A stretch of DNA of 64,000 nt from a virus. Its lineage: Duplodnaviria > Caudoviricetes. The DNA lies in the IMG/VR virus record IMGVR_UViG_3300029288_000002, positions 101,308 to 165,307 of that record. The stretch is one strand, 5' to 3'. A program made the translations under genes and the position numbers. Numbering within the stretch: position 1 is the first letter of the stretch; each line of letters begins with the position of its first letter. Below are positions 5,276-40,141 of this stretch, piece by piece. The notes below the pieces were generated by a model. That model saw nothing but the letters and a program-made list of their open reading frames with translations. It was not told the DNA's origin and did no database searches.

Positions 5276-5373
5276 TACCCTCACAGGAAGGCTTAAGAGC
5301 GAGTTATACTCATTCAAGGTCACTTTATACCTTTAAATTACAAATACCTCATGTGACCACAGGAAGGGTTGAG
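5276..5373. repeat. dispersed ~100-bp element, copy 1
   Basis: CAGGAAG(5284)...AGGT-N8-ACCT(5317-5332)...CAGGAAG(5360). Confidence 0.75.
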
Positions 5374-5393
5374 ACATAAATCGGGCATTTTAC

Positions 5394-5418
5394 AACAGCC
5401 GAAAACTCGGCTGTTTTT
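5394..5418 (+). terminator. intrinsic terminator
   Basis: AACAGCCGA-AAAC-TCGGCTGTT followed by a T run. Confidence 0.7.
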
Positions 5419-5423
5419 AGTTC

Positions 5424-5452
5424 TTGACAAACGATAAACAACGTGCTACAAT
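5424..5452 (+). promoter_or_regulatory. sigma70 promoter of nuclease cassette A1
   Basis: TTGACA-N17-TACAAT. Confidence 0.75.
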
Positions 5453-5473
5453 GATTGAAAGGAGAAATAAAAA

Positions 5474-5920
5474 ATGGATAGAGCAAATTTTTCACACGAA
5501 ATTATTTTGATTGGAGCAGTTGAACAAACAAATCCAATTATAGAATCTTTGTATAATATGCCTCATTTGGCATACGGGTTTAAAGCAGACATTTTTGAAA
5601 ATGTTGCTTACTGTTATATTGACATTGATATGAACGACGTTGCAATGTCTTCTTTTTTAGTAGAAACAAGTGTTGACTTTTACGATAGCAGTGGCTTTGA
5701 AGACGAACCGGAATTTACTACTGTGTCTTTTTATACCGAAACACAATTATACTCTTTTACTTGGTCATATCAATGGAGTGATTGGAGTAAAATGCTTAGG
5801 GATGAAACCTCGATAATGAATCTTTTATCTTGTAACCTTTTTGGAAATAAAATTAAATCCTTAAGAGAACAAGTATCATGTTCCTTATATACAATTGAGT
5901 TAGAAAATGAACAAGACTAA
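5474..5920 (+). CDS. partner protein of nuclease cassette A1 (acidic, unknown function)
   Basis: RBS AAGGAG; 3' end overlaps the nuclease start. Confidence 0.6.
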   Translation: MDRANFSHEIILIGAVEQTNPIIESLYNMPHLAYGFKADIFENVAYCYIDIDMNDVAMSSFLVETSVDFYDSSGFEDEPEFTTVSFYTETQLYSFTWSYQWSDWSKMLRDETSIMNLLSCNLFGNKIKSLREQVSCSLYTIELENEQD

Positions 5921-6443
5921 AAATTATAAATATTTAGATTATGCTACACCAAAAGAGCAACACATTTTACAATATTTATATGGATATTCTACTAAGTTTA
6001 TTGTTTGTAAAGATAAAAAGGGAAACACTGTCGAACAGACTAAGACATATGATGGAAATATTATTTGTAGTTATCCAGACATAGAAGTTTATACCAATGA
6101 AACACAAACGGTTATGATTGCGTTAATTGAAGTAAAAGGCTTTCTTCAATTTCCTAGAAGGGATTTACCATTTGATACTGATTTGAACATTTTGGCAATA
6201 AAAGAAAATCAATTAAAGTCGTATATCAAAGTCCAAAAAGAGGAACAAACAAATATAAATATTATCTTTGTGGTTGGTTATTCACCAGACGAATATGCTT
6301 TTTATTGGGAAAGTCTTGATAACATTTTAGCAATGGAATGTGTAAAGAAAACAGAATGGGCGTTTTTTCAAAAGAAGATAGTAAGATTTTACGATGCTTC
6401 TTTGTTTAGAAGAGACATTGAATATTGTGTAATACCTTTTTAG
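5907..6443 (+). CDS. PD-(D/E)XK nuclease, cassette A1
   Basis: YPDIE...LIEVKG...Q..SY..VQ..E...FYWESLDN; paralogous to 25147 and 42609. Confidence 0.7.
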   Translation: MNKTKNYKYLDYATPKEQHILQYLYGYSTKFIVCKDKKGNTVEQTKTYDGNIICSYPDIEVYTNETQTVMIALIEVKGFLQFPRRDLPFDTDLNILAIKENQLKSYIKVQKEEQTNINIIFVVGYSPDEYAFYWESLDNILAMECVKKTEWAFFQKKIVRFYDASLFRRDIEYCVIPF

Positions 6444-6946
6444 GTAATAAAATCCACATTTGATGAACAAAAGGAAGTATATGAGAGTAATAAAACATAC
6501 AATAAGCATAGAATATGAATGTGAGGAAACAAAATCCAAGCATAGTATAAAATTAATAAATAATAAATTTTCAATTTGGCAAAACCATGTGGAGGATTGG
6601 GGACACGAAACGTTTATTGAGTTTAAATGCCCGTTTTGCCAAAAATATCACCGACTGAAATGGCGTAACGAGTCCACATTTTAGAAATGAAAAAGGAGTG
6701 TTCATGTTAGAAATTGATATTGAAGATTATATTACAGAACAACTAAAAGATGTTGACTGTGAACTTGAAAGACACGATTTTATAGATTTTTATTTTCAAG
6801 ATAGAGATGGTATACAGTTACGGGTTGGTGAATATGAGTGTTATAAATATCTTTCGGAGTATGCAATTTCCAAAGGTGCTAAAATAGGGGATATTGTTTA
6901 TATTTACTGGAAGCCTATTCTAATATAAAAAAGGGCAATATAAAAA

Positions 6947-7932
6947 ATGGAAAATCGCTATCAAACAAGATGCTGTATGAATTGTAAATTTTTAGTTTTG
7001 TGTAACCACAATGAAGCGGATAATGTCTTTGAGTTTTTTGGTTGTAATGTAGATAAGACATATGATGAAGAAACAAGTGAAGCGGAATGGTTAGAAGAAA
7101 ACAAAACAGAATTAGATATGGTTTGTGACTTATGGGAGTTTAATTAGGCAGCAGAATATAGATAGCAATAGTAATATAATTGCAACACTTTTGGCTATTG
7201 CAATTTTAGTATTTGTAGCGTATAATGAATTTAGATTGATAAACTAAGAATAAGGAGTAAACAATGTGTGATTTTTGTAATGGTATGTACAACAAAGATG
7301 AAGCGAGAATGTACGCATTAAAACATCCAACATATTCACTAAGCATTATTGTCAATGGTAAGCAATATATAGTGGTTTCTTTGTCTTCTGATGTAAACGA
7401 TCTTATTGAAATAGATTATGACATTAATTATTGTCCTATGTGTGGTAGAAAACTTGTAGAGGAATAAACAATGAATAGACCCAACCTTAGAGAAATTAAT
7501 TGTGAATGTTGCGATAATTGTTACTTTTCAAAAATTGTTTCTATTGAAGAAATAGGAAAAGCCTATTTGGTTTGTAATTATGAAAATAATGAAAAGGACT
7601 GTTGCCTAAAGCATAAACAAGAATGGGCTGAAGAAAACGAAACCTTTAGTTATTTTATTTGTGATCTTTGGTCAATATAGTATTTGACCATTTTAGTTAC
7701 AAAAAAGGAAGTTAGAATGACCAGTTTATATAGTATTAGACCAAATTTTAGAGAGAACAACAACTGTAGCACGTGTAAATATCGAAATCTTAGACATGAT
7801 GGTTACGGAGGATTTGAATGGATTGGTTGCAACTTTGGTAATACTCGCCAAAACTATTTATCCCTCCTTCAAGAATGGTTGCGCACTTATGAGGTTTCAG
7901 AATTCAATGTTTGCGATTTATGGGAAGAATAG
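6947..7932 (+). CDS. cluster of small Cys-rich (zinc-binding) proteins; 6947..7147, 7471..7680 and 7718..7932 are paralogues, 7264..7467 is an unrelated CxxC protein
   Basis: Shared R...CxxC...CN...W...E...CDLW pattern. Confidence 0.6.
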
Positions 7933-8824
7933 AATGCTTATTTTAGTGACAAAAAGGAGAGTAACCATGTACACAACAGCGAAAGAAATGAGAGAACAGG
8001 CAAATAGTACAAAGACCGAATCTGAAAAAGTAAGTCGGCTTTTAATTCTCATTGATGAAGAATCTAAATTCGGAATGTATAATATCTGCCTCTATTACGG
8101 AAAGAAAAACTGCATATGGCTTTCATATTGTGATGTGGAATATATAACTGAAGTTTTAGGATATAAATACTGTCCTATAATTAATTCGACAAATGAAGAA
8201 ATTGGTTATACAATATCTTGGTGACAGATTTTAAAATTAGACAAACAGGTTATATGATTTCTTGGAAGACAAGAAAAACATCATTCTGATAAAACTCGGA
8301 TTTTAGTTACGAAAAATAAGGAGTTTGAGTATGTCTGTATATGAAAAGATTATTAATAGTGAATTTAAAATTAATGCGCTTGAGGCTAAAGAACTGTCGG
8401 AAGAATGTGAAAACTTATCAGAAAAAAATAGTATAAACACAAGCATTATACTAAGCGCAATAAAAGGGAGTCGTACTATTTACTACGGAGTTAACCAAAT
8501 AACACGAAGCGAAATTTTAGAATTGAAAAGGCAAGGATTTTGTATAATTCCACATTTGGGAAAGACTTGGTTGTTTGGTTTAATTGCAGATATTAATGGA
8601 TACAGCGTATATTGGTAATAAATTCTTGAATTTTAGCAACGAAATTGTAACTAAAATTGCTTGTAATTTGTAGTTATTTAGTATATACTAATAGTATACT
8701 ATGTAAAGGAGTAAAAATGACAAATTAGATTACTACAAACATTTGTCTTTTACCGCTTTGATTTGAAAAATGATTGAAACTATATCAAAAATATCTCAAT
8801 TATAAAACATATAAGGAGAGACAC

Positions 8825-9193
8825 ATGATCAGCCAAAAAAGTAAAGAGATGTGCGAAAAATTGGTAACAGCCATGTATAATTTGCAAGGGCTATCAATTA
8901 AAGCAATGCTGTGTTCTATGATTCCTGCAAACGTTGTGCAGTTGGAAGTATCTGATATTGTCGAGCATTTAATTAGAATTATAGGTACTCATTTTATGAT
9001 TGAAGAAAATCAAAGTTCAGAAATATATATTGAGCATTTGGAAGAATATGAATATTGGACTGGTAAAGCAAATAAACTGATCGAAAATTTAGAAACAATC
9101 ATTTTATATGATACAGAGAAAGACAGTGGAAAACTTTTTATTGATGCAAATAAGCCCTTGTTGGATAATTTTAAAACATATTGGGAAGGATAA
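8825..9193 (+). CDS. partner protein of nuclease cassette B1 (helical)
   Basis: RBS AAGGAG; residue pattern resembles 28704 and 43324. Confidence 0.55.
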   Translation: MISQKSKEMCEKLVTAMYNLQGLSIKAMLCSMIPANVVQLEVSDIVEHLIRIIGTHFMIEENQSSEIYIEHLEEYEYWTGKANKLIENLETIILYDTEKDSGKLFIDANKPLLDNFKTYWEG

Positions 9194-9200
9194 AATAAAT

Positions 9201-9869
9201 ATGAGGCTATTATCTCAATTGTTCAAAAGTCGCCCGAATCTTCCAGAGCCAAGCGAAGAATATTTAAAAATGCTAGAATTAGCAAAAGAATTTGAAAACA
9301 TAGTTTTGAATTGGATGGACTCTTATTGTTATTATATGAATATTGACAGATATACAGTTATAGATGATAAAACAGGTAGAGAAACATATCAAGTATATGC
9401 AGATGAAAATGACAATCCTCGCGCACACCCTGATTTGATTGCTGAAATTTATGTGAATGATAAAAATAGAGTAATAGTATATGTAGAAGTAAAAAGCAAA
9501 AAGTCTCCGTATTACAATTTAACAGGAAACATACCAGAAGATAAAATTAGTAAAACAGAAGAATGTTTTATTATAGAACAAAGTCAGTTCAATAGCTATT
9601 TACACTTGGCTAGAATGAAAAAATCAAAAGTTGATATTCTGTTTATTATTTCAAATTCCTGGAAATGGTATAGATTAGACGTTGAAAATTTAAACAAAAT
9701 AAAAACTTCAATAGTAAACCCTTTTGGTAATAATGGCGACAATCAACAAGGGTTATATTATGTATGGAGACTGAGAGACTTAAAAGAAATAAAAGATCGT
9801 CCCGAAAGACTAGAATTGTTAAGATGCGGGGATAAATTTGGGCAAATTCCTCCCTTTGAAGATAGATAG
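9201..9869 (+). CDS. PD-(D/E)XK nuclease, cassette B1
   Basis: FE..V..W...HPDL...VYVEVKSK...QFNSY...YYVW.L.DLK. Confidence 0.7.
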   Translation: MRLLSQLFKSRPNLPEPSEEYLKMLELAKEFENIVLNWMDSYCYYMNIDRYTVIDDKTGRETYQVYADENDNPRAHPDLIAEIYVNDKNRVIVYVEVKSKKSPYYNLTGNIPEDKISKTEECFIIEQSQFNSYLHLARMKKSKVDILFIISNSWKWYRLDVENLNKIKTSIVNPFGNNGDNQQGLYYVWRLRDLKEIKDRPERLELLRCGDKFGQIPPFEDR

Positions 9870-11657: not shown

Positions 11658-11667
11658 TATTTAAACG

Positions 11668-11696
11668 AAGACCCTGAATAAAATCAGGGTCTTTTT
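11668..11696 (+). terminator. intrinsic terminator
   Basis: AAGACCCTGA-ATAAAA-TCAGGGTCTT then T run. Confidence 0.75.
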
Positions 11697-11701
11697 GGTA
11701 C

Positions 11702-13231: not shown

Positions 13232-13625
13232 ATGAAAATCAGAAACGGATTTGTTTCTAATTCGAGTAGTAGTAGTTTCGTTATTGCCATTAAAAATAAA
13301 AAAGGATTTTACTCAATTTCCATATTGGAATGGAAATATCTACAGTACAGTAGAGGAATTAGATGCTTACTATTTAGACGAGTATTCGTATTTTTCAGAT
13401 GAAGGTAATTGCAAAACTATGGATGGTTTATATGGTCTAATCCCTCATTTGTGCAGATGCGAATTTGATAAATTTATAATTTATCGCAAATGCGTAGAGT
13501 ACATCCAAAAGGGTTATTCTGTATACATTAAATCATTTGATCGCGATTACGACGAGGATTTAATTGAGTCAATTCCGATATGCAAAGGCGAAGACATTAT
13601 CTTAATCTTGCAGAAAACAGAGTAA
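13232..13625 (+). pseudogene. SNSSS-leader protein 4, +1 frameshift in the A6 run at 13298-13303
   Basis: ATG 13232 after AGGAG reads MKIRNGFVSNSSSSSFVIAIKNKK; the body continues in the +1 frame (ORF 13251..13625). Confidence 0.7.
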
Positions 13626-13641
13626 TACTTCTACAATGCCT

Positions 13642-13744
13642 TTGTAGCTTCACAGGAAGCACTGCAAACGATTTATATTGAATAAAGGTAGTATTTTTGA
13701 CCTATAAACTGAAAATGCCCCACATCGCGTCCAGAAGGCTTGAG
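13642..13744. repeat. dispersed ~100-bp element, copy 2
   Basis: CAGGAAG(13653)...AGGT-N10-ACCT(13686-13703)...CCAGAAG(13731). Confidence 0.75.
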
Positions 13745-14200
13745 TCAAAAGGAGTAATTATGTCAGTATGGTATTCTTGCAGTGGTAATCATTTACCAAA
13801 AGGCACATTTGATGTAGAAATCAGGTTGTGTTATGGCGGCAACTTAGATAACAATATTATAACAGGTTATTACAATGGGCGTGCCTGGTATAATGATGAA
13901 TACTGCTATACTAAAATTGAAAATCCTATTTGCTGGAGATATAAATAAACTAAAATAATTAGGATTATACTAATCTAAATTATTTTAGCGTGCAAAGGAG
14001 TTATATGAAAATTTGCTGTAATGAGAGATGCAAAGAATTATACGATGACATTTTTACGCTTCATGTTATTTGTTGCCCTATATTTAATGAAATGCTAATA
14101 AATCGTGGTTATTCCTGTTGGTTAGATAAAGACATAAAAGATTTATACTTTAGCAATGGGGAATATAGAGAGTATGAGGTTTATGAAAGGACAAATAACA

Positions 14201-15109
14201 ATGGACAATGATATTTTGAGGTTGATTGCAATTCAAACAAAAGACTGTGTATATGTTTCCAATGACCTAATGGGAAATGGTTATTGTTATGAAAGTGGGA
14301 ATAAACTATTGAGTTGTCGGTTTGACGGGAAATCGCCAAAAAAGACATATCACGGTCAATGGTTTATTTTAGATAATATTCCTGCTGTAGTAGAATATAA
14401 GCACGCAGAAGGTTATATAAACTATAGATTAGAATTAAAGCCAGAAGTTGTTGATGCAGTTGTAAATTTGCCTAAAGTAATAAACTCTCGATATTTAGAT
14501 GAGGATTGTGCAGAATACAACTTTAGAGGGTTATACGAAGAGCGATACGATACTACACCTGAATATTGGGAAGAGATACCTTTTCAAATTAACATCTTAG
14601 ATTCACTTGATGATTTTTCTATAACTAAAAAAGAGTATGAATTTACAACATCGTTGTTAGATAAAATTAAATATCACCCAATCCTTTTGCCTACAAAACC
14701 TTGCTCTATGAGTAGCAAAGACTCTTATAATGTTATTAGAGATTATGTAAGAACTCATATTGACAATAATTATGCTAAAATCGTTACAAATGAAAGTAAT
14801 CACTTTAAAGTAGAAAAGATTATAGAAACAGATACTCCAGAAGCATATCGAGTGGAAATTAACAAGGGTTACAGAAAGAAATCCAAATGGGAAACTTGTT
14901 ATCGCAAAATAAGAAGTGCTGAAATGTTGAATATATCGCCAAATAACGATTCTTGGGCAAAAGAAAAGGTTTATTTGTTTTCAGGTATAAATTATAATGA
15001 TATGATTGCAAACATGAACGCTTATTTAGAAAGCCTAATGCTTCAAATAAATAAGCCTCTTTGTGATTGTCCAACTTGCAAAGGATATGGAGTTATAGAA
15101 AAAGAATAA
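14201..15109 (+). CDS. hypothetical phage protein with C-terminal CxxCxGxG
   Basis: CPTCKGYG at the C-terminus; long ORF with RBS. Confidence 0.6.
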   Translation: MDNDILRLIAIQTKDCVYVSNDLMGNGYCYESGNKLLSCRFDGKSPKKTYHGQWFILDNIPAVVEYKHAEGYINYRLELKPEVVDAVVNLPKVINSRYLDEDCAEYNFRGLYEERYDTTPEYWEEIPFQINILDSLDDFSITKKEYEFTTSLLDKIKYHPILLPTKPCSMSSKDSYNVIRDYVRTHIDNNYAKIVTNESNHFKVEKIIETDTPEAYRVEINKGYRKKSKWETCYRKIRSAEMLNISPNNDSWAKEKVYLFSGINYNDMIANMNAYLESLMLQINKPLCDCPTCKGYGVIEKE

Positions 15110-17283: not shown

Positions 17284-17356
17284 GCCTTATTAGCTCATTC
17301 AGTAGAGCAACGCCCTTTTAAGGCGGAGGCGGTTGGGGCAGAGCCAATATAAGGCA
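17284..17356 (+). tRNA. tRNA-Lys(TTT), atypical T loop
   Basis: GCCTTAT/ATAAGGC acceptor, GCTC..GAGC D arm, CGCC-CTTTTAA-GGCG, T loop GGCAGAG. Confidence 0.8.
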
Positions 17357-18293: not shown

Positions 18294-18299
18294 TAAAAG

Positions 18300-18730
18300 T
18301 TATACTGTAGGAATTACAGAATTTTAAGCCTGTGGAGATTGTGTAAGACTCTTCGGAGCAACTGTCTATGAAACAGGAAGTTACTAAGGTAACAATTCAA
18401 GACTAAATAAGTAACATTGTGGTTATTTGAAAATATAAACACTTGACCCTTTGGCGATGAGGGTTATCATCGCCACTAATTTGATTATATCAAATAACTG
18501 ATTGAACTTGAAATTCAATCCCTTCTTTGGCTGCATTGCCAATGTGTGCGGAAACCGTACAAAAAAGTCAAAGATCAAAGGTTAAAGATTAAAAATCAAA
18601 GTTTAAAGTTTAAATTGTTAAAGATTACTTATTACAGTTTACGGTTTATAGTTAATACAAATCTTTGAACAACGGTTAAGGTACTTCAAGTATGACCGCA
18701 GATTCCCGCAAAGCTGAATAATCACAACCA
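18300..18730 (+). ncRNA. putative structured non-coding RNA with 7-nt repeat array
   Basis: No ORF of 60 aa or more; several hairpins; TYAAAGN repeats at 18568-18652; ends at a terminator. Confidence 0.6.
18568..18652 (+). repeat. heptamer tandem array, about 12 units
   Basis: TCAAAGA TCAAAGG TTAAAGA TTAAAAA TCAAAGT TTAAAGT TTAAATT (G) TTAAAGA TTACTTA TTACAGT TTACGGT TTATAGT. Confidence 0.85.
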
Positions 18731-18759
18731 AGAACCTGAGTAAAATCAGGTTCTTTTTA
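18730..18759 (+). terminator. intrinsic terminator
   Basis: AAGAACCTGA-GTAAAA-TCAGGTTCTT then T run. Confidence 0.75.
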
Positions 18760-18841
18760 TTTTGCCTATTGACAAATCGGCAATAGTATGCTAAACTACA
18801 CATATCGAATAAATAGTAGTTATTTCTATAAGGAGACAGAA

Positions 18842-23906: not shown

Positions 23907-24635
23907 ATGCAATATATGGGTAGCAAAAATCGTTATGCTAAATACTTGTTGCCGATTCTGTAACAGAATCGGCAATTTGGTCAGTGGTATGTAGAGCCGT
24001 TTGTTGGTGGTGCAAATATGATAGATAAAGTTACTGGTAACAGAATTGGTGTGGATAATAACAAATACCTTATAGCATTACTCAAAGCAGTACAACAAGG
24101 GTGGATACCACCAAGCAACATTAGCAGAGAAGAATACAACAAAGTTAAAGATAACCCAGACTCTTATGAAGATTATTATGTTGGTTTTGTGGGATTTTGT
24201 TGCTCTTATGCTGTAAAGTGGTTTGGCGGTTATGCTAATAGCGTAACAAAAGCGGGTAGAATTAGAAATTATTGTTTTGAAAATAAAGAAAATTTGTTAG
24301 CACAAGCACCAAAGCTAAAAGATGTAGATTTTAGGTGTTGTTCATATGATCAATTAGACATTCCTAAGCAAAGCATTATCTATTGTGAATATGCAAATAG
24401 CACTAAATATGTATCTGCCTTTGATCACATTTCATTTTGGCGGTGGTGTAGAGAGAAGTGTGCAGAAGGTCATGCGCTTTATGTATCAGAATACTCCGCG
24501 CCAGAAGACTTCGTTTGCACATGGTCTAAACAGGTGATTGTAGGGTTAGATGTGACTACAACTACAAAGCGGATTGAGCGGCTGTTTGTACACGAAAGTC
24601 AGTTAAATTTGCATCTTGACAATCGCTTGTTTTAG
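23907..24635 (+). pseudogene. Dam/D12-class adenine methyltransferase with in-frame TAA at 23961 and loss of DPPY
   Basis: MQYMGSKNR...*...YVEPFVGGANM in frame with ORF 24018; IIYCEY where IYCDPPY is expected. Confidence 0.8.
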
Positions 24636-24673
24636 TGTATAATGAAAGTATAAGATTAGCTAAAGGAGAAGAT

Positions 24674-25156
24674 ATGGGTGAAATCAGAATCATTTTTGGT
24701 GAAAATGAAGTTCCGAGCAATGAAGAGTTAATTAAATGGGGAGATTTGGGAATTGCTTGGGTAATGGAATTTACCTTAAAGAAGAATGGGAATAAGGCAT
24801 TAATTGAATTTGAGGAATGTTCTCGCAGTTTCATTGACCAGTGTTTTGAGTTATTTATGCCATTTCACGATTCTAAAGTGTGGGCTTTTGCTTTGGATAA
24901 TGATGATGATTGCGCAATGCTACAAAAGTATTTGCGAAACGGCGAAGCGGAATATATGAGCATGGAGTCTAAGTCTGTTTGGACAAGACCATACAACAAA
25001 GAGTATGGTGATGCTTTTCTAAAATATATTGGATTTCCTGAAAACTTCTTTGATTTATTCAAAGAAGAAGCGTTTGAAAAGGACATGGTTTATTTAGTAG
25101 ATCATCGTAATGAAACGCTTATAGCAGAATATGAAAAGAGTCTTCTATGCCAATGA
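24674..25156 (+). CDS. partner protein of nuclease cassette A2
   Basis: Promoter TTGACA..TATAAT at 24616-24643; RBS; overlaps the nuclease start. Confidence 0.6.
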   Translation: MGEIRIIFGENEVPSNEELIKWGDLGIAWVMEFTLKKNGNKALIEFEECSRSFIDQCFELFMPFHDSKVWAFALDNDDDCAMLQKYLRNGEAEYMSMESKSVWTRPYNKEYGDAFLKYIGFPENFFDLFKEEAFEKDMVYLVDHRNETLIAEYEKSLLCQ

Positions 25157-25671
25157 GAGGTAGCGAATTTAGTATTTTTAATTTATTGTCTAAGTTTAAT
25201 AAAAAGACACCCGAATACAAATGGGAATACTTTGAGGTTTTTGGCGAAGATGGAAAAACAACAACATATCAATCAAAGTTATACCCTCCTCCCGCTTTTA
25301 GAGCAGCATATCCTGATTTTGAAAAGTATAAAATGCCAGAACACAGTTTGGTTTTGTTGGTAGAAGTAAAAGATCAAACAGATTACTATGAAAACTGTGA
25401 AGGTATGCTTGCAATGAAAAGATGCCAATTTAACCAATATTTTACAGTTCAAGACCAAGAAAAGGTAAAAGTTAGAGTTGTATTTGCTTTGAATATTACT
25501 GGCAGTCATTGGCATACAGAATACTATTGGGAAACATTAGATAATCTAAAACGCCTCCCTCATATTGACCAAATTTATGAAGGTTGGAGTTATGGTAAAA
25601 AGAAAACAGAAACTTATTGTTTTTGGAATGTTTGTGACCTTCGTAGTGATGTCGAAAACTTGGGAATTTGA
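25147..25671 (+). CDS. PD-(D/E)XK nuclease, cassette A2
   Basis: AYPDFEKY...LLVEVKD...QFNQY..VQ..E...YYWETLDNL...FWN..DLRSD. Confidence 0.7.
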   Translation: MPMRGSEFSIFNLLSKFNKKTPEYKWEYFEVFGEDGKTTTYQSKLYPPPAFRAAYPDFEKYKMPEHSLVLLVEVKDQTDYYENCEGMLAMKRCQFNQYFTVQDQEKVKVRVVFALNITGSHWHTEYYWETLDNLKRLPHIDQIYEGWSYGKKKTETYCFWNVCDLRSDVENLGI

Positions 25672-26743: not shown

Positions 26744-26791
26744 GTAATTAGAAAATAATAGAGACTCTTACAAGAGTCTTTATTATTGGTC

Positions 26792-26892
26792 TTGTAGCTT
26801 CACAGGAAGCCCCACAAGCGAAGCAATTAGTAAACAGGTCGCATTATACCTCAAACTGCAAAATGCCACACAACGAACCAGAAAGGACTGAG
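26792..26892. repeat. dispersed ~100-bp element, copy 3
   Basis: CAGGAAG(26803)...AGGT-N8-ACCT(26836-26851)...CAGAAAG(26879); TTGTAGCTTCACAGGAAGC identical to copy 2. Confidence 0.75.
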
Positions 26893-26896
26893 ACGA

Positions 26897-27658
26897 ATGA
26901 AGATTTCAAACGAGGTTATGGAGATTTTAGTGCAAAGCACTATTGAAGAAAACAAATTGTTCTTACCCGCATTTCAATTAGACCGCAAACTATACTTGGA
27001 TGTGAATAAAGCATTAGAGTCTATTGGCGGGAAGTGGAATCGTAAAGCAAAAGCTCATGTATTTGAGATTGATCCATCGGATGTATTAGATGAAATTATT
27101 AATACAGGAGAATACACAGACGCTAAAAAAGAATATCAATTCTTTGAGACTCCTGAATGGTTAGCTAAGAAAATGGTAGAATTATCAACTGCTGCTGAAA
27201 TGAGTGGAATGATGTTAGAGCCATCGGCGGGAAAAGGTGCTATTGCAAAGTATTTTCCAAAGAATAATATTGTATTGATTGAATTGAACAATACTAACAT
27301 AGAATATTTAGAAAAAGTATTCGGTGATAAAGCTGCAGCAATTTATAACTCTGATTTCTTGCTATTTAATTTCATTAAAGATTTTCAATATATTATTATG
27401 AATCCTCCGTTCTCTAAACAACAAGACGTAAAACACATTCTCCACGCTTGGGAATTGCTTGCAGATGGCGGTACACTTGTTTCTGTTGTAAGCGAGAGTC
27501 CTTTCTTCCGTGAGAATGCTTTGTCTAAGGAATTTCGTAGATGGGTAGAAGATAATGATGTGGATGTAACTTCATTAGATGCAGGTACATTTAAAGAAAG
27601 TGGGACTATGGTGAAGACAAGGTTATTAGTGGCTAAAAAGGGCTGTAATGAAAATTGA
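26897..27658 (+). CDS. DNA N6-adenine methyltransferase (gamma class)
   Basis: QFFETP, LEPSAGKG, IIMNPPF, F.ESGT. Confidence 0.85.
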   Translation: MKISNEVMEILVQSTIEENKLFLPAFQLDRKLYLDVNKALESIGGKWNRKAKAHVFEIDPSDVLDEIINTGEYTDAKKEYQFFETPEWLAKKMVELSTAAEMSGMMLEPSAGKGAIAKYFPKNNIVLIELNNTNIEYLEKVFGDKAAAIYNSDFLLFNFIKDFQYIIMNPPFSKQQDVKHILHAWELLADGGTLVSVVSESPFFRENALSKEFRRWVEDNDVDVTSLDAGTFKESGTMVKTRLLVAKKGCNEN

Positions 27659-28703: not shown

Positions 28704-29075
28704 ATGACTAAAATGCAAGGAAATGAGAATGTTCAAGCCTTATTGGAACGCATATATGCTTTGCTGTTGCTTGGTATACGCGGAAGCAATATGTCGCTGG
28801 TTAGTGTTGAAAATACAACGTCTGCTGCTTTTATTATTGCAGAAATATATGTGTTATTAAATAGACAAGAAATTTACTTTTCAGAATGCGAGTTTATGAC
28901 TGTAGAAGTCGAAGAAATTCTTAAGCGAGCTGATAGATTGATTGATATATGGTCTGTCGGTTATTGCGAAACTGCTAATAGACCGGTTGAAAAAGAATTG
29001 AAAAATATGCCGTTTTTTGTAAGTGATTTTAAAGATGTTTTGTTTACAAATAGTATAAATAAAGAGACTAAATAA
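28704..29075 (+). CDS. partner protein of nuclease cassette B2
   Basis: RBS AAGGAG; TAATG stop/start coupling with the nuclease; resembles 43324. Confidence 0.55.
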   Translation: MTKMQGNENVQALLERIYALLLLGIRGSNMSLVSVENTTSAAFIIAEIYVLLNRQEIYFSECEFMTVEVEEILKRADRLIDIWSVGYCETANRPVEKELKNMPFFVSDFKDVLFTNSINKETK

Positions 29076-29656
29076 TGTTTACCAAAAAGTCAAAAACACA
29101 ATTTGATAAAAATTTTGAAATAGGTGAGTATTACGAAACCCTCGTTGAGCGTTGGTTAAATTCAATGGGCGTTTATAATGTTGAAAAAGTTGTATGCAAA
29201 AAGAATGGAAAGGTGGTTCATCAATATTGTATTAATGACAAGGGGGACGAAATTCCATTTCCTGATTTTAGAGTATTCTTGATAGGAGAAAAAGGATTCT
29301 TTTCTAAACCTAAGTTTTTACTTGAAGTTAAAAGTTTTGAAAAATATTATAATAACACTGATTCAAGTATAAAAGAACTGGAACTTTTTAAAAACTATAT
29401 GATGGTTGATGCTTACCATTTTGATAGTTATAAATGGATAGCTAAAGAATACAAACAAAGTGTAGAGTTTATATTTGTAATTTATTCTGGCTTTACTTAT
29501 TGGTATACAGAAAGCATTGATTATTTAGATGCTCATAAGATTCTGGTTCAAGGATTGTTTTATGATTCTTCTAATTCACATTATGCTTGGGCGGTTGATA
29601 TACTCAAAAGAATAAATGGTCATCCTTTAAAGAGGTATGGCTGGGATAGTTTGTAA
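29075..29656 (+). CDS. PD-(D/E)XK nuclease, cassette B2
   Basis: GEYYE..VE.WL...FPDF...LLEVKS...F..Y...WYTESID.L..HK. Confidence 0.7.
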   Translation: MFTKKSKTQFDKNFEIGEYYETLVERWLNSMGVYNVEKVVCKKNGKVVHQYCINDKGDEIPFPDFRVFLIGEKGFFSKPKFLLEVKSFEKYYNNTDSSIKELELFKNYMMVDAYHFDSYKWIAKEYKQSVEFIFVIYSGFTYWYTESIDYLDAHKILVQGLFYDSSNSHYAWAVDILKRINGHPLKRYGWDSL

Positions 29657-31031: not shown

Positions 31032-31106
31032 AACCGGATGGCGCAATGGCACAAGAAGACGCAGGGTAATTCCCCAAAAGTAAAGGTTCAAATCCTTTTC
31101 CGGTTA
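31032..31106 (+). tRNA. degenerate tRNA / pseudo-tRNA (anticodon arm collapsed)
   Basis: AACCGGA/TCCGGTT acceptor and AAAGG-TTCAAAT-CCTTT intact; anticodon arm only GGG-TAATTC-CCC. Confidence 0.45.
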
Positions 31107-32744: not shown

Positions 32745-32747
32745 TCT

Positions 32748-33905: not shown

Positions 33906-33923
33906 TTTAAAGGAGAATATATT

Positions 33924-34346: not shown

Positions 34347-34367
34347 ACTACTAACAATATAATAGAC

Positions 34368-34403
34368 AAGGGGCAGTAGCAAGCAATTGTTATCTGCCCC
34401 TTT
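34368..34403 (+). terminator. hairpin/terminator after ssb
   Basis: AAGGGGCAG...CTGCCCCTT. Confidence 0.5.
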
Positions 34404-34426
34404 AAATTACAGGGCAGGAGGTAAAT

Positions 34427-35815
34427 ATGGATTTGGATATTTCAACTATTAGTGATATTGTGAGCGAGTCGGGGTGTGTAGCGACTTTGTTTTATCATCC
34501 TGAATATAGTTTGTTTAGTGAACATTTGAAACCGCACTATTTTGTACAAAATGATAATGGTATAATTTATAGTGCTATTGCAGAATTATATAAGAACGGG
34601 GTTACAAATCCAGACGTTTTTAACCTTTGGCAATTTATTTCAAACGATGTTAAATTAAAAAACAATCTTGCATTAACTATTGACGGGTTACGGGACATTA
34701 AATCTTATGCCGAAAGTATTGCAAGACACTCAATTGCCGAATATAACTTGCTGGTAAAAAATATTTGTGATTTGGCATATCGCAGGGATATGTATACAGC
34801 ATTAGAACGAGGAAAGGCGTATTGTAGTATCAACAATACAAACGAAACGTTTGATGTTAAAAGGGCTATTTATGACGAATTAACTAAAGTAGAAAATGGC
34901 TTCTCATCTAAAGAAGAAATTCCATTGATGGGAGATATTGTAGACGAGTTGTGGATACAAACATTGGTTAGGCAGGCTAAGAATGGTTATATTGGTATTT
35001 CTTCTAAGTTTCCTGCTCTAAACGAGTATATCACATATGACCCTGGTGAACTAACTCTCTTTTGCGGAAAAACGGGTACTGGCAAGTCAATGATTTGTAT
35101 GAACGAGGTTATTCACAAATTATCATTAGAAAAAAATAGCAATAATGAAGAACTGTCCGTTTTATATATTGACACTGAGATGAGCGATCAGGAATTTTTC
35201 AATAGAATGTTAGCCTCTATTACAGGCATAGAAACCAATAAAATCAAAAGCGGCTATTATACAAAAGAAGAAGAAAAACAAATTGATAACGCTATTGCTT
35301 GGATAAAAACTAAAAAAGTTGTGCATTTGTATTTGCCGGAAGTAAACGAGCAAATAGTGTGGGAAAAATGCAGACAAGCACAGTTAGAATACGGTATGAA
35401 CTTTTTAGTTTATGATTATGTGAAAAGCGGTGATGAAATTGAAGCCAATAAAGTTTATAACTCTATGGGTAAAATGCTAAATCACATTAAAAATAATATT
35501 GCTGGGAAATTAAAAATCCCTTGCATTAGTGCCGCTCAACTTGGGAGAAATGGCACAATTGCAGACTCTTGGAAACTCATTATGTATTCGAGTGCTGTGA
35601 TTTTTCTTCTAAAAAAGGACGAAAAAGAAATAGCTAAAGATGGTGTTGATTGCGGTAATTACAAACTTTTTGTAACTAAAAACAGACATGGAAAAGTAAT
35701 GGGAGAAGTAGAAACAGAGTATATTGATTTGTTGTTTACTGGTGAAAATGCTACATTTACACAGGCAAAAAAGCAACATAATTCTTTTGTTCCTTTGACG
35801 CCGTTTGATAATTAG
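34427..35815 (+). CDS. dnaB: replicative DNA helicase
   Basis: GKTGTGKS, YIDTEM, VYDY, AAQL.R, KNRHG. Confidence 0.9.
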   Translation: MDLDISTISDIVSESGCVATLFYHPEYSLFSEHLKPHYFVQNDNGIIYSAIAELYKNGVTNPDVFNLWQFISNDVKLKNNLALTIDGLRDIKSYAESIARHSIAEYNLLVKNICDLAYRRDMYTALERGKAYCSINNTNETFDVKRAIYDELTKVENGFSSKEEIPLMGDIVDELWIQTLVRQAKNGYIGISSKFPALNEYITYDPGELTLFCGKTGTGKSMICMNEVIHKLSLEKNSNNEELSVLYIDTEMSDQEFFNRMLASITGIETNKIKSGYYTKEEEKQIDNAIAWIKTKKVVHLYLPEVNEQIVWEKCRQAQLEYGMNFLVYDYVKSGDEIEANKVYNSMGKMLNHIKNNIAGKLKIPCISAAQLGRNGTIADSWKLIMYSSAVIFLLKKDEKEIAKDGVDCGNYKLFVTKNRHGKVMGEVETEYIDLLFTGENATFTQAKKQHNSFVPLTPFDN

Positions 35816-35823
35816 GAGTCCTT

Positions 35824-36822
35824 ATGCCAGAAGTATACGATATAGAAAAAATAATAGAAGCGTATGACCTTCTGGAATATGCTTCTCGTTATACTAATCT
35901 TGAGGAACGGCATGAAGGCGATAACGACTTTTGGGGCATTTGCCCTAATCCTGAACACTTAGAAAAAACCGCTTCTTTTGGTGTAAACATTGAAAACGAT
36001 ATTCAGTTTTTCAACTGCTTAGGCTGTCATTGGCATGGTACTATTATTGCGTTTGTTATGAAAATGGAAAACCTTAGCTATTATAAAGCAGTTGAAAAAT
36101 TAGCAAATGATATGAATATGCCTAAAGTTGAAATATCAAGTGTCCAATTAGTTAGCAGAAAATTTAAAGTAAAACGTGCAAAGAAAAGCGAAAAGGTTCA
36201 TATTATATTACCGGAAGATATAATGGGTGAGAAAACGGAAGAAATAACAGAGTGGTTACAAGAAGGTATATCTTCTATTGTAATGGACGAGTTTCAAGTT
36301 AGAAAGAACAAAATACAAAAAGAGTCTATTGAGTTCCCAATTTGGGATAATAACGGCAACATTATAAACATTTCCCGTAGAACGACTTGCCCAGACTACA
36401 AAGAGTTGAAAATACCCAAGTATGTTTATTATAACAAAATTGGTTGTTTGGACTTCTTTTATGGGTGGTATCAGAATCAAGAATTTATAAAGCAAAAAAA
36501 TGAGATTGTTCTATTTGAAGGGGCTAAGTCAGTATTCAAAGCAATAGATTATGGCTATAGTAATGCGTGTGCTATATTGACAAGCAATATGAGTACAGAA
36601 CAAGTGAAGATTATTATAAGCAATCACATTGAGAATGTAACATTTGCTTTAGACAAGGGAATTACACCTAAAAAGATTGCTGAAATGACAACACTACTTA
36701 GGCACTATTGCAAAGTGTATTATATTGACGGGAGGGATTTGTTGGAAGACAAAGACTCTCCTGTAGACAAAGGGAAGGCGGTGTTTGATACACTATATGC
36801 TGAAAGGAAAATGATACGATAG
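35824..36822 (+). CDS. dnaG: DNA primase (CHC2 zinc finger + TOPRIM)
   Basis: CP..EH.EKTASF, FNCLGC, FPI, ISRR, KY, LFEG.KS, ALD, KDSP.D. Confidence 0.85.
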   Translation: MPEVYDIEKIIEAYDLLEYASRYTNLEERHEGDNDFWGICPNPEHLEKTASFGVNIENDIQFFNCLGCHWHGTIIAFVMKMENLSYYKAVEKLANDMNMPKVEISSVQLVSRKFKVKRAKKSEKVHIILPEDIMGEKTEEITEWLQEGISSIVMDEFQVRKNKIQKESIEFPIWDNNGNIINISRRTTCPDYKELKIPKYVYYNKIGCLDFFYGWYQNQEFIKQKNEIVLFEGAKSVFKAIDYGYSNACAILTSNMSTEQVKIIISNHIENVTFALDKGITPKKIAEMTTLLRHYCKVYYIDGRDLLEDKDSPVDKGKAVFDTLYAERKMIR

Positions 36823-36880
36823 AATTGGGGCTTGACAAAGGATATAGAATAGACTATAATAACTTAAAGGAGATTGGATT

Positions 36881-37315
36881 ATGAGTGATACATATAACGA
36901 AATAAAAATATATGGGGCTAAACCAACAGAAAGTATTATAAGCCAAATCAATTCAATATTTGGAGCATCGTGTATATTTTTTGAAATTGATTCTGTTATT
37001 TCTCACAAACAAGACACGTTGCGCAATGTAACAATCATCGAGTATGAAAAACTACAGCACCTCTGCAAAGACATTGGGGCAATATTATTAACCTCTCAGA
37101 TTGATGAATCGTTGCAACACAGTAAAAAAACACTGTGCTTTCCTGATGGTAGAGTAATGGTGTTAGATGTTATATCTGATAAATTAGAGGATCACCAAAA
37201 AGACACAGCCGTTTTTGATATGTTTTTTGTCAATAATGGTGTTACAAAAGACGCAAACAAAAAAACAATGTTGCCCAATAAGGGGAAGAAAGAACATGAC
37301 AGAAATCCTTTCTGA
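36881..37315 (+). CDS. partner protein of nuclease cassette C1
   Basis: Promoter 36832-36860; I.IYG.KPT...S.INS.F and FPDG resemble 59894 (ITLFGKTPT...SKINSVF, YPDG). Confidence 0.6.
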   Translation: MSDTYNEIKIYGAKPTESIISQINSIFGASCIFFEIDSVISHKQDTLRNVTIIEYEKLQHLCKDIGAILLTSQIDESLQHSKKTLCFPDGRVMVLDVISDKLEDHQKDTAVFDMFFVNNGVTKDANKKTMLPNKGKKEHDRNPF

Positions 37316-37874
37316 AGAAGAATTTGGTAAACAAGGGCAAGACTTAGTTATTAATTACCTTGAAAAAGATAGAGGATGTAAATTCCTTGCTGGTGAAAGG
37401 GACGGGACAGTATACAACATCTTTTATATTGAAGAAACTGAAAAGTGTTTCTTTATACCAGAATGTAGAGATGATGATGAAGAATGGCACGGTAATCAAT
37501 TGTTGTTTGCAAATGAAGAAAAAGGTATAATCATGCCTGATTTTCTTATGAGTAGACCAAACGACACCGGGGATTATTGGGTAGAGGCTAAGAGGCACCA
37601 CTATTATTCTGATAAATTATATATTGTTGAAAAAAGTTTTTTAGATTATCAGAAATTCTATGAAGATCATACTGATAGAGATATGTTTGTTATGTTAATT
37701 AATCCTTACAACGAAACTCATATTAATATATATTATTGTCCTATTTCTAAGTTAATTGAATCTCCTTGTATAAGAAGTCTATATAAGAAAAAATATTCTC
37801 TATTGTGGTCTATAAAGAAAACAATGAAAAAGCTAAACGAATCACCACTGTTAATAACAGACTATCTTTTTTAG
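37296..37874 (+). CDS. PD-(D/E)XK nuclease, cassette C1
   Basis: FGKQGQD..INYLEK, MPDFLM, YWVEAKRHH; close paralogue of 60282. Confidence 0.7.
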   Translation: MTEILSEEEFGKQGQDLVINYLEKDRGCKFLAGERDGTVYNIFYIEETEKCFFIPECRDDDEEWHGNQLLFANEEKGIIMPDFLMSRPNDTGDYWVEAKRHHYYSDKLYIVEKSFLDYQKFYEDHTDRDMFVMLINPYNETHINIYYCPISKLIESPCIRSLYKKKYSLLWSIKKTMKKLNESPLLITDYLF

Positions 37875-37893
37875 TTAAGGAGATTACAACACA

Positions 37894-38646
37894 TTGTCAG
37901 ATTTCAAGCATAGCAACAGTAGTGTCAATAGTTTCATTACTTGTCCATATAGTTATAAACAGCTTTATGTAGACCGTATACCAACTCGTGCCAATAACTA
38001 TTATGGGCAATTTGGTTCAGTTATGCACAAGGTATTAGAGTTATACTTAAAAAAGGAAATTGACCTTTTTAGTATTGAAGATCATTATAACCAACTATAT
38101 AATGAATTTATCACTTGTAATATTCCAATGGGGAGTGCAGAAAGTTATTATACAGCAGGACTAAATTTCTTCAAGTATTTATCCTTTTTAGTTGATAATT
38201 ATGATATAATTGCAATTGAGAAACGATTAGAGTTTAGTTACTTTGGTATTGATGTTGTGTGTGTACCAGATTTGATTTTGCGTGAAAAGGCTACTGGTAA
38301 ATACATTTTATTTGATTATAAAACATCCAGTGCAAAAACAGAAAAGGAGTGTGTGGTTAAAGTAAAGAAAGAGCATTATGATAGACAAGCATATTTGTAT
38401 GTTTGGGCAATATGGGAGTCTATGGATATTGCAATAGACGAAATTAAAATTTGGTTTTTACGACCAAATATTGTAACAGATTTGCAATGGAATCAAGAAG
38501 ATATTGACTTGACAAGAGACTGGTTTGTGGATACAATAGAGTTAATTGAAAAGGAAAGCGAATGGAAAGCCAATAACGAAAATGCTTTCTGGTGTAATTT
38601 TTTGTGTTCTGCAAGGGCTAATTGCCTGTTCAAAAAGGAGACATAG
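37894..38646 (+). CDS. RecB/Cas4-like PD-(D/E)XK exonuclease
   Basis: S.S....F.TCP, FGS.MH.VLE, IE, PDLI, FDYKT, Q..LY, C-terminal CNFLC...C. Confidence 0.85.
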   Translation: MSDFKHSNSSVNSFITCPYSYKQLYVDRIPTRANNYYGQFGSVMHKVLELYLKKEIDLFSIEDHYNQLYNEFITCNIPMGSAESYYTAGLNFFKYLSFLVDNYDIIAIEKRLEFSYFGIDVVCVPDLILREKATGKYILFDYKTSSAKTEKECVVKVKKEHYDRQAYLYVWAIWESMDIAIDEIKIWFLRPNIVTDLQWNQEDIDLTRDWFVDTIELIEKESEWKANNENAFWCNFLCSARANCLFKKET

Positions 38647-40049
38647 AATGGGAAAATCGCAACGGCAACTCGAAAAGGAAGAAGAAGCACGTATCGAGAG
38701 CAAAGATGGTACAGTTCGATATGTAACGTGGAACGGGTACGAAATCTACATTGTAACAGTAATGCGGTTTGATGGTACAGATTATAGTACAGATCAGTGG
38801 CAAACTGTAGCAGCATTTCTAAATGGTAAGAAGTTGAACGAAAAGGATTGGTAATAACATGAAAGAATATCCTCCGTTGACACAGATCGCTTATGTTCCA
38901 TTACATGCAAAAAAGAGATTTATCTCATAAAGACGCGGAATTTGGGTTTATTGCATCAAGTAAGTTGAATGGTAATTCTTATTATTGCCGTTATTGGAGT
39001 AAGACTAATCCAAATGAATTGCGCACTAAAGCAAATGGTGAAATTACATATGAATGGTTTATTGTTGAGTATCAGTCACATAAAGATGCGGATGTTATTC
39101 GTGTTTGGGACGAAATTCAAAAAGGAGAATAATTATGTCTACATTAAATCCTGTTAGTGTTAAACCATATACATTGAAAGCAGGTGACTTGCTTGGTTTC
39201 AAAATTGTTGCAAAGATTTACAGCAATAATAACGGCGAAGGATTTTGGGCGGCTTATCGCGGTCTTACTGATTGGGAGGATGAAAAGGTTGCATCAGATG
39301 GTGACAAAATTCCACAGGAAGTTGCAGAAGCATTATTTTATGCGCCCACTGCGTTAGGACTAATTTACAATGATTGAATGCCCTAAATGTCAAACCAATA
39401 AGAATTTGATACTTGAACGTCCTGCCTGGGATAAATTTTGTGTAACAGACTCTGTAACTGTTCAAGCACATTGTTGCGAATGTAAACTTGATTTTGAAGT
39501 TTCTGCTGAATTATCTAATATTGTACTTTTACAGATTATCAAAACCAATGTAGAATATCCGTTTTCAGCATAAGGGGCGGCAATGAATAATATTCCTTTA
39601 GACGAGTCTGAAACAGAATTAAGCGACGCCGATTTTTGGAAAGCTGAAGCTAAAAGCGAAGAATATTGGGCGGAACATTATTTTAAGATAGCGATTGCTG
39701 TTTTTGGAGTTTGTGAAAAATATATTACTCAAACCAAAGCAAGCGATGACAGTCAGGAGTATTTATCTTTTAGAGAGAATATTGAAGCACTACGAAGGGA
39801 GTTGTAATATGGCTTTATTTGATGATGACTATAACGTTACAGCATTAAAACGTGAATTAAAAGACGAGCAAGAGTTGTCAAATTACTATCTCGAAAACTG
39901 GAAAGATTTGACTGCTCAGTGTGAAAGGTATTTAGAGCATGTTTTAAATCCCGCAGCGTTACAAGAAGAAAAAGACGAATGTTTGGATTTATTTGTACAA
40001 GCCATCAGAAACACTAAATCTTTGCTTTCATAGCTTATCATAATGACTC

Positions 40050-40141
40050 TGTATGCCACCAGGAAGGACTAAGGCGAAGGAAGTTTAGGTATAGGTCAAA
40101 TACTACCTTTGCGTATTCTAAATTGAACCCGGGCTTTCTTG
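40050..40141. repeat. dispersed ~100-bp element, copy 4 (inverted core and right arm)
   Basis: CAGGAAG(40060)...AGGT-N8-ACCT(40093-40108)...CTTTCTTG. Confidence 0.65.

Follow-up and report, generated by a model that had tools for sequence, protein, structure and literature searches.

An interspersed gene-boundary cassette of box and hairpin in a 165-kb phage genome and in other phages

Repeated elements lying between genes have been described in phages and in bacteria. The PeSL cassettes of T4-type phages consist of a sigma-70 early promoter next to a terminator-like stem-loop (PMC2839356, PMC4122927), intercistronic RNase III sites occur in the early and late messenger RNA (mRNA) of T7 and, as Bs-RNase III sites, in Bacillus phage SP82 (Panganiban & Whiteley 1983, cited in PMC4838370), and BIME/RIP (REP-IHF site-REP), Correia/NEMIS, ERIC and BOX are mosaic interspersed repeats of bacteria (PMC2229807, PMC3184786, PMC3733652). 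Here we describe a non-coding cassette of ~90-135 bases from a 64,000-nucleotide stretch of phage DNA (Duplodnaviria; Caudoviricetes), hereafter the window, which comprises bases 101,308-165,307 of the IMG/VR record IMGVR_UViG_3300029288_000002. The whole record (G000) is 165,307 bp long and has direct terminal repeats. In it a conserved box of ~55 bases is combined with a small hairpin and, in many cases, with a further box. It is a real and previously undescribed element without a match in Rfam, and constitutes an interspersed gene-boundary repeat.

Geometry and copies of the cassette

The consensus of the box has nAnAAT-GCC-YYTGTAG first, continues past five or six variable positions with CACAGGAAGG and YTGAGAGCGA, and passes into an A/T-rich stretch. 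The hairpin begins 32 nt after the A of AGGAAGG in all aligned copies, those of other phages included, and no insertions or deletions are observed over ~75 nt. Its 16 nt are asymmetric (AGGTA...GACCT) and are found in either orientation relative to the box. Behind the hairpin there is a short U-rich stretch. Three arrangements occur. Copies B and H of G000 have a box and a hairpin only, and single boxes are also present in the outside carriers L260 and G011 (see below). In copies C, D, E and F a second box follows in direct orientation, with its AGGAAGG 29-30 nt past the hairpin. In copies A, G, I and K the second box is inverted and the whole folds as a long hairpin; inverted boxes are also found at L274, a copy from another phage. 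The second box is located at a similar distance whether it is direct or inverted. The palindromic copies terminate in CACAGGAAG and CTTCCTGTG.

Within the box, the pyrimidine run GCCUYUGU is able to pair with ACAGGAAGG. The purine run is present as AGGAAGG, AGAAAGG, AGAAGG or AGGAGA, and as AGGAG in the copy G011a. In Bacillota-type hosts the tail of the 16S ribosomal RNA (rRNA) carries the anti-Shine-Dalgarno sequence CCUCCUUUCU; the purine run is probably Shine-Dalgarno (SD)-like, all of its variants keeping complementarity to this tail.

Four copies (D, E, F and G) had been noted in a preliminary description of the window as sites at gene boundaries, and all four are present and intergenic. 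The geometry given for them is reproduced: CAGGAAG (5284, 13653, 26803 and 40060) precedes AGGT (5317, 13686, 26836 and 40093) by 33 nt in four of four copies, the core is AGGT-N8-ACCT (N10 in copy E), and in D, E and F a second CAGGAAG-like arm is located 31 nt past the A of ACCT. The core of G likewise equals the reverse complement of that of E if 2 extra bases are disregarded, and the right arm of G is degenerate and of opposite orientation. Three points of the description have to be revised, the first being the number of copies, which is at least 11. What had been called an arm is the middle of the continuous, moderately conserved ~55-nt box, and the sequence between arm and core, described as divergent, is moderately conserved as well and continuous with the arm (alignments A5 and A6). 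The interval of ~13.2 kb, seen between E and F and again between F and G and proposed as a period, is a coincidence, because the 11 copies now known are irregularly spaced. CAGGAAG alone occurs 13 times in the window (3.9 ± 1.9 in shuffled sequences), and the gapped pattern matches 6 times in the 165,307-bp genome, with 0 matches for the reversed control. A chance origin of the geometry is excluded.

Copies were searched with the gapped pattern and with two profiles, R1 built from 13 arms and R2 comprising the box plus the hairpin, and at least 11 were found in G000. They lie between 61 and 141 kb (at 61.1, 66.2, 66.7, 71.9, 76.1, 79.2, 92.0, 106.6, 115.0, 128.2 and 141.4 kb), all in the rightward early/replication arm and all either intergenic or bordering transcription units; no copy was detected in the leftward, structural arm by the R1 and R2 searches. 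Below, copies D-G are given in window positions and the others in G000 coordinates.

Box 1 and the hairpin of copy D occupy 5257-5339 on the plus strand (G000:106564-106646; R2 65.8 bits), with the hairpin, AGGTC-N6-TACCT, at 5317-5332 (no strand specified), and are followed by a direct second box at 5338-5389 (+; G000:106645-106696; R1 24.8 bits). The copy stands in a 3' untranslated region and begins 31 nt past the stop codon of a 78-aa open reading frame (ORF, 4993-5229). An intrinsic terminator with a 7-bp stem plus T5 (5396-5418, +) lies 35 nt after the AGGAAGG of the second box, and a consensus promoter follows it at 5424-5452. In copy E, box 1 and hairpin are located at 13626-13710 (+; R2 67.8 bits), the hairpin (13686-13703, with N10) having the AGGTA..GACCT orientation, and the direct second box at 13710-13760 (+; R1 21.1 bits) runs into an AAAGGAG ribosome-binding site with the ATG at 13760. 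The box of E begins ~10 nt past the TAA of the ORF 13251-13625, and the copy ends at the next ribosome-binding site. Copy F (box 1 plus hairpin 26776-26857, +, R2 57.5 bits; hairpin 26836-26851) is immediately preceded by a symmetric terminator-like hairpin (26757-26790) with a 7-bp stem, scored on the minus strand. Its direct second box (26860-26910, +; R1 23.8 bits) has its AGAAAGG 10 nt ahead of a DNA methyltransferase gene (start codon ATG at 26897), at the expected SD position, which suggests that this box serves as the ribosome-binding site of the gene. Box 1 and the hairpin of copy G are found at 40033-40115 (+; R2 59.8 bits; hairpin 40093-40108), and a degenerate inverted box on the minus strand (40108-40160; R1 21.7 bits) closes a long imperfect hairpin with box 1. 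The box begins 8 nt past the TAG at 40031-40033 and the copy ends, as does E, at the next ribosome-binding site.

Three of the other copies are clustered: A (61128-61209), with the complete box on the minus strand and a shorter box on the plus strand, B (66146-66227, +) and C (66683-66765, -; second box 66609-66687). The hairpin of A (61134-61149) is identical to that of G. Further to the right are found J (71864-72021, -), which is decayed, I (76059-76140, -), K (79157-79233, +), also decayed and placed between a terminator and a promoter at 79295, and H (91935-92018, -), which lies inside a 108-aa ORF of the plus strand and scores 36.7 bits though outside the training set of the model. Copies I and K are located in front of promoters. 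At the gathering threshold, Rfam detects only transfer RNAs (tRNAs) in the window, and with permissive settings nothing relevant was returned for copy E, the 59-72-kb region or L260/L273.

Copies in other phages

Public collections (IMG/VR, JGI metagenomes and GTDB) were scanned for the element, and all counts from these scans are counts among the matches listed. A first wide-gap pattern yielded chance hits alone in IMG/VR, and a 32-bit gapped pattern gave 35 hits across all of IMG/VR, none resembling the element outside the fixed letters. A stringent pattern gave 8 hits in the JGI metagenomes, one of which, on the 4.4-kb contig L260, is supported further: it also matches the 5' half of the box, which the pattern left unconstrained (R1 21.3 bits), and has a perfect AGGTA-N6-TACCT hairpin at +32. 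A UvsX-like recombinase gene of L260 ends in a TAG, 1 nt past which the box begins, and from the hairpin it is 31 nt to the next ATG.

Scanning with the 5' half of the box led to IMGVR_UViG_3300005466_000193 (G011, 34.5 kb), which has two copies, one located between a terminase-like gene, whose TAA it overlaps, and the portal gene, and the other after a tRNA gene. Through the portal protein of G011 three related contigs were found (67-70% identity). The element is present at the same terminase|portal junction in G012 and in G013/G014, and G014 has one after a tRNA as well. In G015 the junction is empty (TAG, ten bases, ATG), and a divergent copy is located elsewhere in that genome. The outside copies, five to six in number, are all in sense orientation relative to the flanking genes, and D-G are likewise.

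Some features beside these copies may be recorded here. The terminase-like gene at L273 contains the 3' portion of a group I intron (1-128, +; Rfam 34 bits, E 8e-6), truncated by the contig end. G011 encodes (L270:12618-14090, +) a 490-aa DUF2828/DUF7788/vWA protein, matched to the PHROG 'RNA-binding protein' at 7e-137; the gene is followed by the tRNA (14199-14271) and directly by the repeat (14272-14354), and the same layout is found in G014. This order of protein, tRNA and repeat recalls Ro/Y-RNA loci; a TROVE/Ro link was considered and rejected, and G000 has no TROVE protein.

The only proteins shared among G000, the G011 group and L260 are ribonucleotide reductase and dUTPase, and no DNA-binding protein is common to these carriers. 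Across IMG/VR, the JGI metagenomes and GTDB the family extends to three phage groups only. In 185,579 bacterial and archaeal species genomes (GTDB) the box gave 3 chance hits, none of them confirmed, and because it is absent from the bacterial species genomes searched, it is not a host operator or promoter motif. A blastn search against 50,697 phage genomes returned nothing. The element is also absent from 1.4 Mb of loci of DNA polymerase or methyltransferase relatives: relatives of the methyltransferase gene do not have it upstream, and DNA polymerase relatives of up to 49% identity are without it, bar one weak lone box in G008. As its occurrence is restricted and its carriers are nearly without common proteins, the element is best described as a rare, phage-borne, horizontally shared family. 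The lone match in G008 (1862-1905; L215:1500-1545; R1 20.1 bits, E 7e-5) is found on a phage contig of 130 kb with a DNA polymerase 43% identical to that of G000; the match has no hairpin at +32 and is either a remnant or due to chance.

Folding, orientation and competing explanations

The most informative comparison between phages concerns the hairpin. In G012-G014 it reads CCATA...TATGG instead of AGGTA...TACCT, with three pairs changed on both sides and with the box and the 32-nt distance kept. The covariation score is 0.249, compared with 0.179 ± 0.037 in shuffles, and is reached by 21 of 500 of them. The pairing of the hairpin is thus kept through sequence change; since the signal comes from one lineage and few independent lineages are available, the covariation is suggestive only. 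The preliminary description had taken covariation as a sign that would speak for an RNA structure and against a DNA-level site, and such a sign is observed in weak form, the core being swapped in other phages with pairing and box retained.

At L273 a 14-bp stem has the hairpin as its tip and continues into U-rich sequence (six U, then AUU), the structure of a terminator, and at L274 the entire element is one long imperfect hairpin in which AGGAAG closes with CUUCCU. An intrinsic terminator is a G+C-rich stem of at least 5-7 bp with a U run behind it, and this build is found at L273 and past the second box of copy D. The box-sense strand folds more stably than its complement in copies A (-36.5 vs -28.5 kcal/mol), I (-26.0 vs -19.8 kcal/mol), L273 (-36.7 vs -27.0 kcal/mol) and G011a (-30.4 vs -25.9 kcal/mol), an advantage of 4.5-9.7 kcal/mol, which argues for selection of G-U or G-T pairs on one strand. 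There is hardly any difference between the strands in G and L260, and in L274 the complement is the more stable one. For copy A, with its inverted arm, the z-score of the fold is -2.9 to -3.7. RNase III processing needs ~20 bp or more of (imperfect) duplex RNA, and an imperfect duplex of ~20 bp or more is formed by A, G, I and L274, not by C, D, E and F.

We tentatively favor the explanation that the element is a mobile, modular gene-boundary cassette acting as a single-stranded nucleic acid, most probably in polycistronic mRNA; RNA is probably the active form rather than single-stranded DNA. The cassette would punctuate long transcripts at gene borders. Its hairpin at +32, ranging from weak to a full terminator, could give partial termination, a stable 3' end or a processing site, and the purine run may bind 30S subunits and in this way protect or load the downstream message. 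The pyrimidine run of the box would pair with the purine run, and a ribosome terminating at the adjacent stop codon would cover the former. Where the second box is inverted, it would pair with the first and close the long hairpin. The expression of neighboring gene modules would thereby be uncoupled, and the cassette, being self-contained, is proposed to be exchanged between co-infecting phages.

A number of observations weigh against this explanation. Stable folding is not seen in the direct-arm copies C, D, E and F (z -1.3 to +0.7), for which RNAalifold recovers nothing but the invariant 4-bp stem, without covariation. In the other copies the hairpins, of 4-5 bp and with 2-4 U, do not have the build of a terminator and are too weak to act as one alone. 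For the in-box hairpin (GCCUYUGU with ACAGGAAGGC) the covariation does not exceed what column composition gives (100 of 500 shuffles). In copies I, H, J and perhaps B the complete box is antisense to the flanking genes, and K, perhaps also I, has a terminator on one side and the next promoter on the other, a position in which not much RNA would be expected. Two further features suggest a site recognized in DNA, namely AGGT/ACCT, which never varies in the eight well-preserved copies (A-G) of G000 and is degenerate in I and H, and the flipping of the hairpin, in which the loop is retained as reverse complement. No model accounts for this flipping and for the direct-arm copies at the same time. 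The long-range pairs CCUUU/AAAGG and AGGAAGG/ACCUUU were rejected, as they are not conserved (by eye).

A selfish mosaic repeat of the MITE, BIME or Correia type is possible, though we consider it rather unlikely. Such a repeat would be non-autonomous, its hairpin ends moved by a host or phage enzyme, and it would be tolerated only in intergenic DNA, with effects on transcripts as by-products. The multiple copies in both orientations, some of them decayed (H inside an ORF, J, K), the mosaic of direct or inverted boxes around a central motif, and the inverted boxes of A, G, I, K and L274, which resemble terminal inverted repeats, all fit this description. The occurrence in phages without shared genes, with a filled and an empty junction among relatives, fits it as well, and strand-asymmetric folding is also expected of single-stranded DNA hairpins. 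However, no target-site duplication was found at the sites examined (copy A and the terminase|portal junction), no sharp ends are definable, and G000 encodes no serine recombinase and no Y1 (HUH) transposase, other transposase families not having been searched. The direct-arm architecture is unlike that of a MITE, and the restriction to three phage groups makes the element very rare for a repeat of this kind. Copies of ~60% identity moreover keep exact lengths and conserved blocks, which points to selection on function and counts against a selfish repeat.

It is unlikely, in our view, that the element is a nucleoprotein site on double-stranded DNA, as the preliminary description had proposed. 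Such a site would serve in recombination by the phage tyrosine recombinase, in stoperator-like repression or insulation, or in chromosome organization. A dimer would occupy AGGT-N8-ACCT and a further protein the boxes ~3.5 helical turns away. The rigid spacing and the near equidistance of direct and inverted second boxes are in accord with this, as are the invariant AGGT/ACCT of well-preserved copies, the core that flips relative to the boxes, and the cluster of three copies at the GC-skew minimum and control region (61-67 kb). On the other hand, other phages keep the box and swap the core for a different, still pairing sequence, the carriers have no common DNA-binding protein, the copies show no periodicity and are missing from the leftward arm, and the outside copies are all in sense and abut stop codons, which double-stranded sites do not need.

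The earlier interpretation is partly supported. The rigid geometry, the additional copies and the presence of one tyrosine recombinase agree with it, and the details of the core and the lack of periodicity do not. The recombinase, a 349-aa protein (G000:17735-18784, -; Pfam Phage_integrase 8e-19) from the only ORF with this domain, adjoins a RuvC-like resolvase (G000:18792-19271, -) in the tail module, next to a PhageMin_Tail protein, and its gene is 43 kb from the nearest copy of the repeat, whereas the cognate enzyme of a core site is usually encoded adjacent to it. The core sites of tyrosine recombinases (loxP, FRT, dif, attP core) have inverted 9-13-bp binding elements around a 6-8-bp overlap. 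N8 fits such an overlap (copy E has N10), but the inverted repeat of the cassette is only 4-5 bp long (AGGT(A/C) and its complement) and the 5 nt outside it differ in every copy, so the build of a tyrosine-recombinase core site is lacking. Partner sites of this kind have the same overlap sequence. The spacers of the cassette differ between copies, and most pairs would therefore probably not recombine; the one pair with an identical 16-bp core is A (61134-61149) with G (141400-141415), which are directly oriented and separated by 80 kb. The recombinase and RuvC genes lie side by side between tail genes of an otherwise lytic-looking 165-kb phage.

A promoter with a leader, in which nAnAAT would be the -10 element for a modified RNA polymerase, or a leader coupled to translation through an AATG mini-frame, is improbable. 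TACAAT, CATAAT, TAGAAT or TATAAT stands directly before GCC in most boxes, and copy F follows a terminator, its methyltransferase gene having no other promoter upstream. Nevertheless, no -35 or extended -10 element is shared, promoter scans of copies E, F and G were negative, and inverted copies would make convergent promoters; G000 otherwise uses dozens of near-consensus TTGACA-N17-TATAAT promoters outside the elements. The mini-frame would be ATG-CCY-YTR-TAR (Met-Pro-Leu-stop; nine codons in some copies), at which re-initiation past the upstream stop codon would open the box hairpin and control the downstream hairpin; in that case the element may be an attenuator RNA of a new, translation-coupled class. 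An ATG or TTG occurs in 14 of 18 boxes, the outside copies have the stop directly adjoining the start (TAATG, TAGAATG), and the nine-codon frames of G (MTLYATRKD) and I (MPLYATRKD) show three 'synonymous' differences, AGG/AGA, AAG/AAA and TAA/TGA. The frame is, however, not preceded by an SD sequence, codon 4 is a stop or Tyr indifferently, and the conservation has no 3-periodicity (permutation p 0.48).

There is a similarly slight chance that the cassettes serve in recombination as folded single strands, in the manner of the attC sites of integrons, the hairpin being recognized by the phage tyrosine recombinase or by host Xer. Each copy would then stand at the end of a gene cassette, immediately behind the stop codon, and accessory genes (Gad1, methyltransferases, nuclease cassettes) would be captured and exchanged between otherwise unrelated phages. 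The attC motifs RYYYAAC and GTTRRRY are absent from the cassette.

The remaining candidates were rejected. A coding or pseudogene origin has no support in the column entropies by codon position (1.06, 0.99 and 1.04; permutation p 0.48), a replication-oriented strand bias does not agree with a box strand that switches between 92 and 106 kb and a GC skew that turns at 66 kb, and resemblances to sigma-70, sigma-54, LexA (CTGT-N6-ACAG), CtsR, cre, the DnaA box, dif and lambda boxA are partial or on the wrong strand. The hammerhead core (CUGANGA...GAAA) does not fit, the PyrR binding loop resembles the purine run with no Rfam match, and the likeness to a tRNA 5' half is without anticodon or T arm.

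Genome setting and relation to known systems

The ORFs of G000 (~34% G+C) are directed leftward from 0 to ~59 kb (structural genes) and rightward from ~59 kb to the end. The rightward arm has dozens of near-consensus TTGACA-N16-18-TATAAT promoters and ribosome-binding sites of AAGGAG type. As judged from sequence, the phage is without a close relative; the closest relative of its DNA polymerase (62% identical) is found on a 5.9-kb contig, the identity to IMG/VR relatives is at most 49% and to isolated phages ~34%. The region at ~61-68 kb (L133), which holds copies A, B and C, is a control region, ORF-poor and A/T-rich, with many palindromes, and the cumulative GC skew has its minimum at ~66 kb, ~7 kb right of the switch in ORF direction at ~59.5 kb.

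Among the genes near the copies is a clear homologue of the Gabija anti-defense protein Gad1 (14156-15109, +; Pfam PF25705, 1e-71), 400 nt downstream of copy E. A DNA methyltransferase-like gene with an NPPF motif and without a Pfam match (4416-5030, +) lies beside copy D, the one beside copy F (26897-27658, +) matches Pfam MTS / N6_Mtase, and a third methyltransferase-like gene is located at G000:20313-21158 (-; N6_N4_Mtase 5e-37). Three families of dispersed two-gene paralogous cassettes were detected by BLASTP, with further members at 46-53 kb and 94-98 kb of G000. The first family (5474-6443, 24635-25671 and 42137-43127) has all these members within ~2 kb of copies D, F and G, possibly by chance; the others are found at 9108-9869, 29075-29656 and 43736-44326, and at 37215-37874 and 60282-60881. 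A stretch of ~490 nt without ORFs (18294-18787, +) follows a 212-aa ORF and includes a run of AAAG-rich heptads (CAAAGAT, CAAAGGT, TAAAGAT ...); it has no Rfam match and ends with a clean terminator, then a consensus promoter at 18769. The tRNAs of the window are tRNA-Met, Ser, Ile(TAT) and Leu(TAA), to which Rfam, but not ARAGORN, adds two tRNA-like genes (17284-17356, +, 45 bits, and 31032-31106, +, 33 bits), the first reading as tRNA-Lys(UUU) with a mismatched anticodon stem.

The signals that punctuate long one-directional gene arrays in large lytic phages are known for few model phages. An alignable family with exact geometry, mosaic build and a distribution across phages without common genes offers a marker for the bounding and exchange of gene modules, anti-defense genes included. 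Acting in RNA, the cassette would represent a novel cis-regulatory motif, in phages whose hosts are probably of Bacillota type; with folded DNA as its active form, it would be a site for the exchange of cassettes.

Compared with the described systems, the cassette resembles PeSL in being a repeated composite non-coding motif with a stem-loop at the gene-module borders of a large lytic phage. PeSL are tied to the gain, loss and shuffling of accessory genes (PMC2839356, PMC4122927). The cassette differs from them in that no promoter is detectable inside E, F and G, in its 55-nt box, fixed spacing and second boxes, and in being common to phages without shared genes. With the bacterial mosaic repeats it has in common the 100-150-bp intergenic unit, built as an alternating or tandem mosaic around a central motif, and the decayed copies; those repeats are transcribed with operons, just past stop codons, and affect termination and mRNA stability. 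They are, in contrast, chromosomal, high-copy and species-specific, whereas the cassette is phage-borne, low-copy and found across unrelated phages. As to REP in particular, the GTAG of the box is not followed by a G+C-rich palindrome and G000 has no RAYT/Y1 enzyme.

The likeness to attC lies in imperfect palindromes after stop codons, a structure kept more than the sequence, strand-specific folding and a tyrosine recombinase in the genome. However, RYYYAAC / GTTRRRY are missing, the recombinase is of the generic phage-integrase type and not adjacent, the direct-arm copies cannot fold, and there is no array by an attI-like site. Polypurine or STAB-SD sequences reportedly act as 5' stabilizers of Bacillus mRNA. 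Like these and the RNase III sites, the cassette is repeated, in copies of similar sequence, between the cistrons of long phage transcripts, with hairpins and an SD-like purine run without a start codon; the comparison is by description, not by sequence, and a long duplex is present in the inverted-arm copies only. The stoperators and the SAS/ESAS of mycobacteriophages are said to be 13-17 bp long and lineage-specific, with a known or suspected protein partner. Like the cassette they are asymmetric, scattered over gene boundaries close to stop or start codons, and oriented with transcription, SAS including an SD sequence, but the unit of the cassette is ~90 nt, with a hairpin at a fixed distance. 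In general, the cassette shares its position and general logic with PeSL, the RNase III sites, the mosaic repeats and attC, and departs from each of them in a defining feature.

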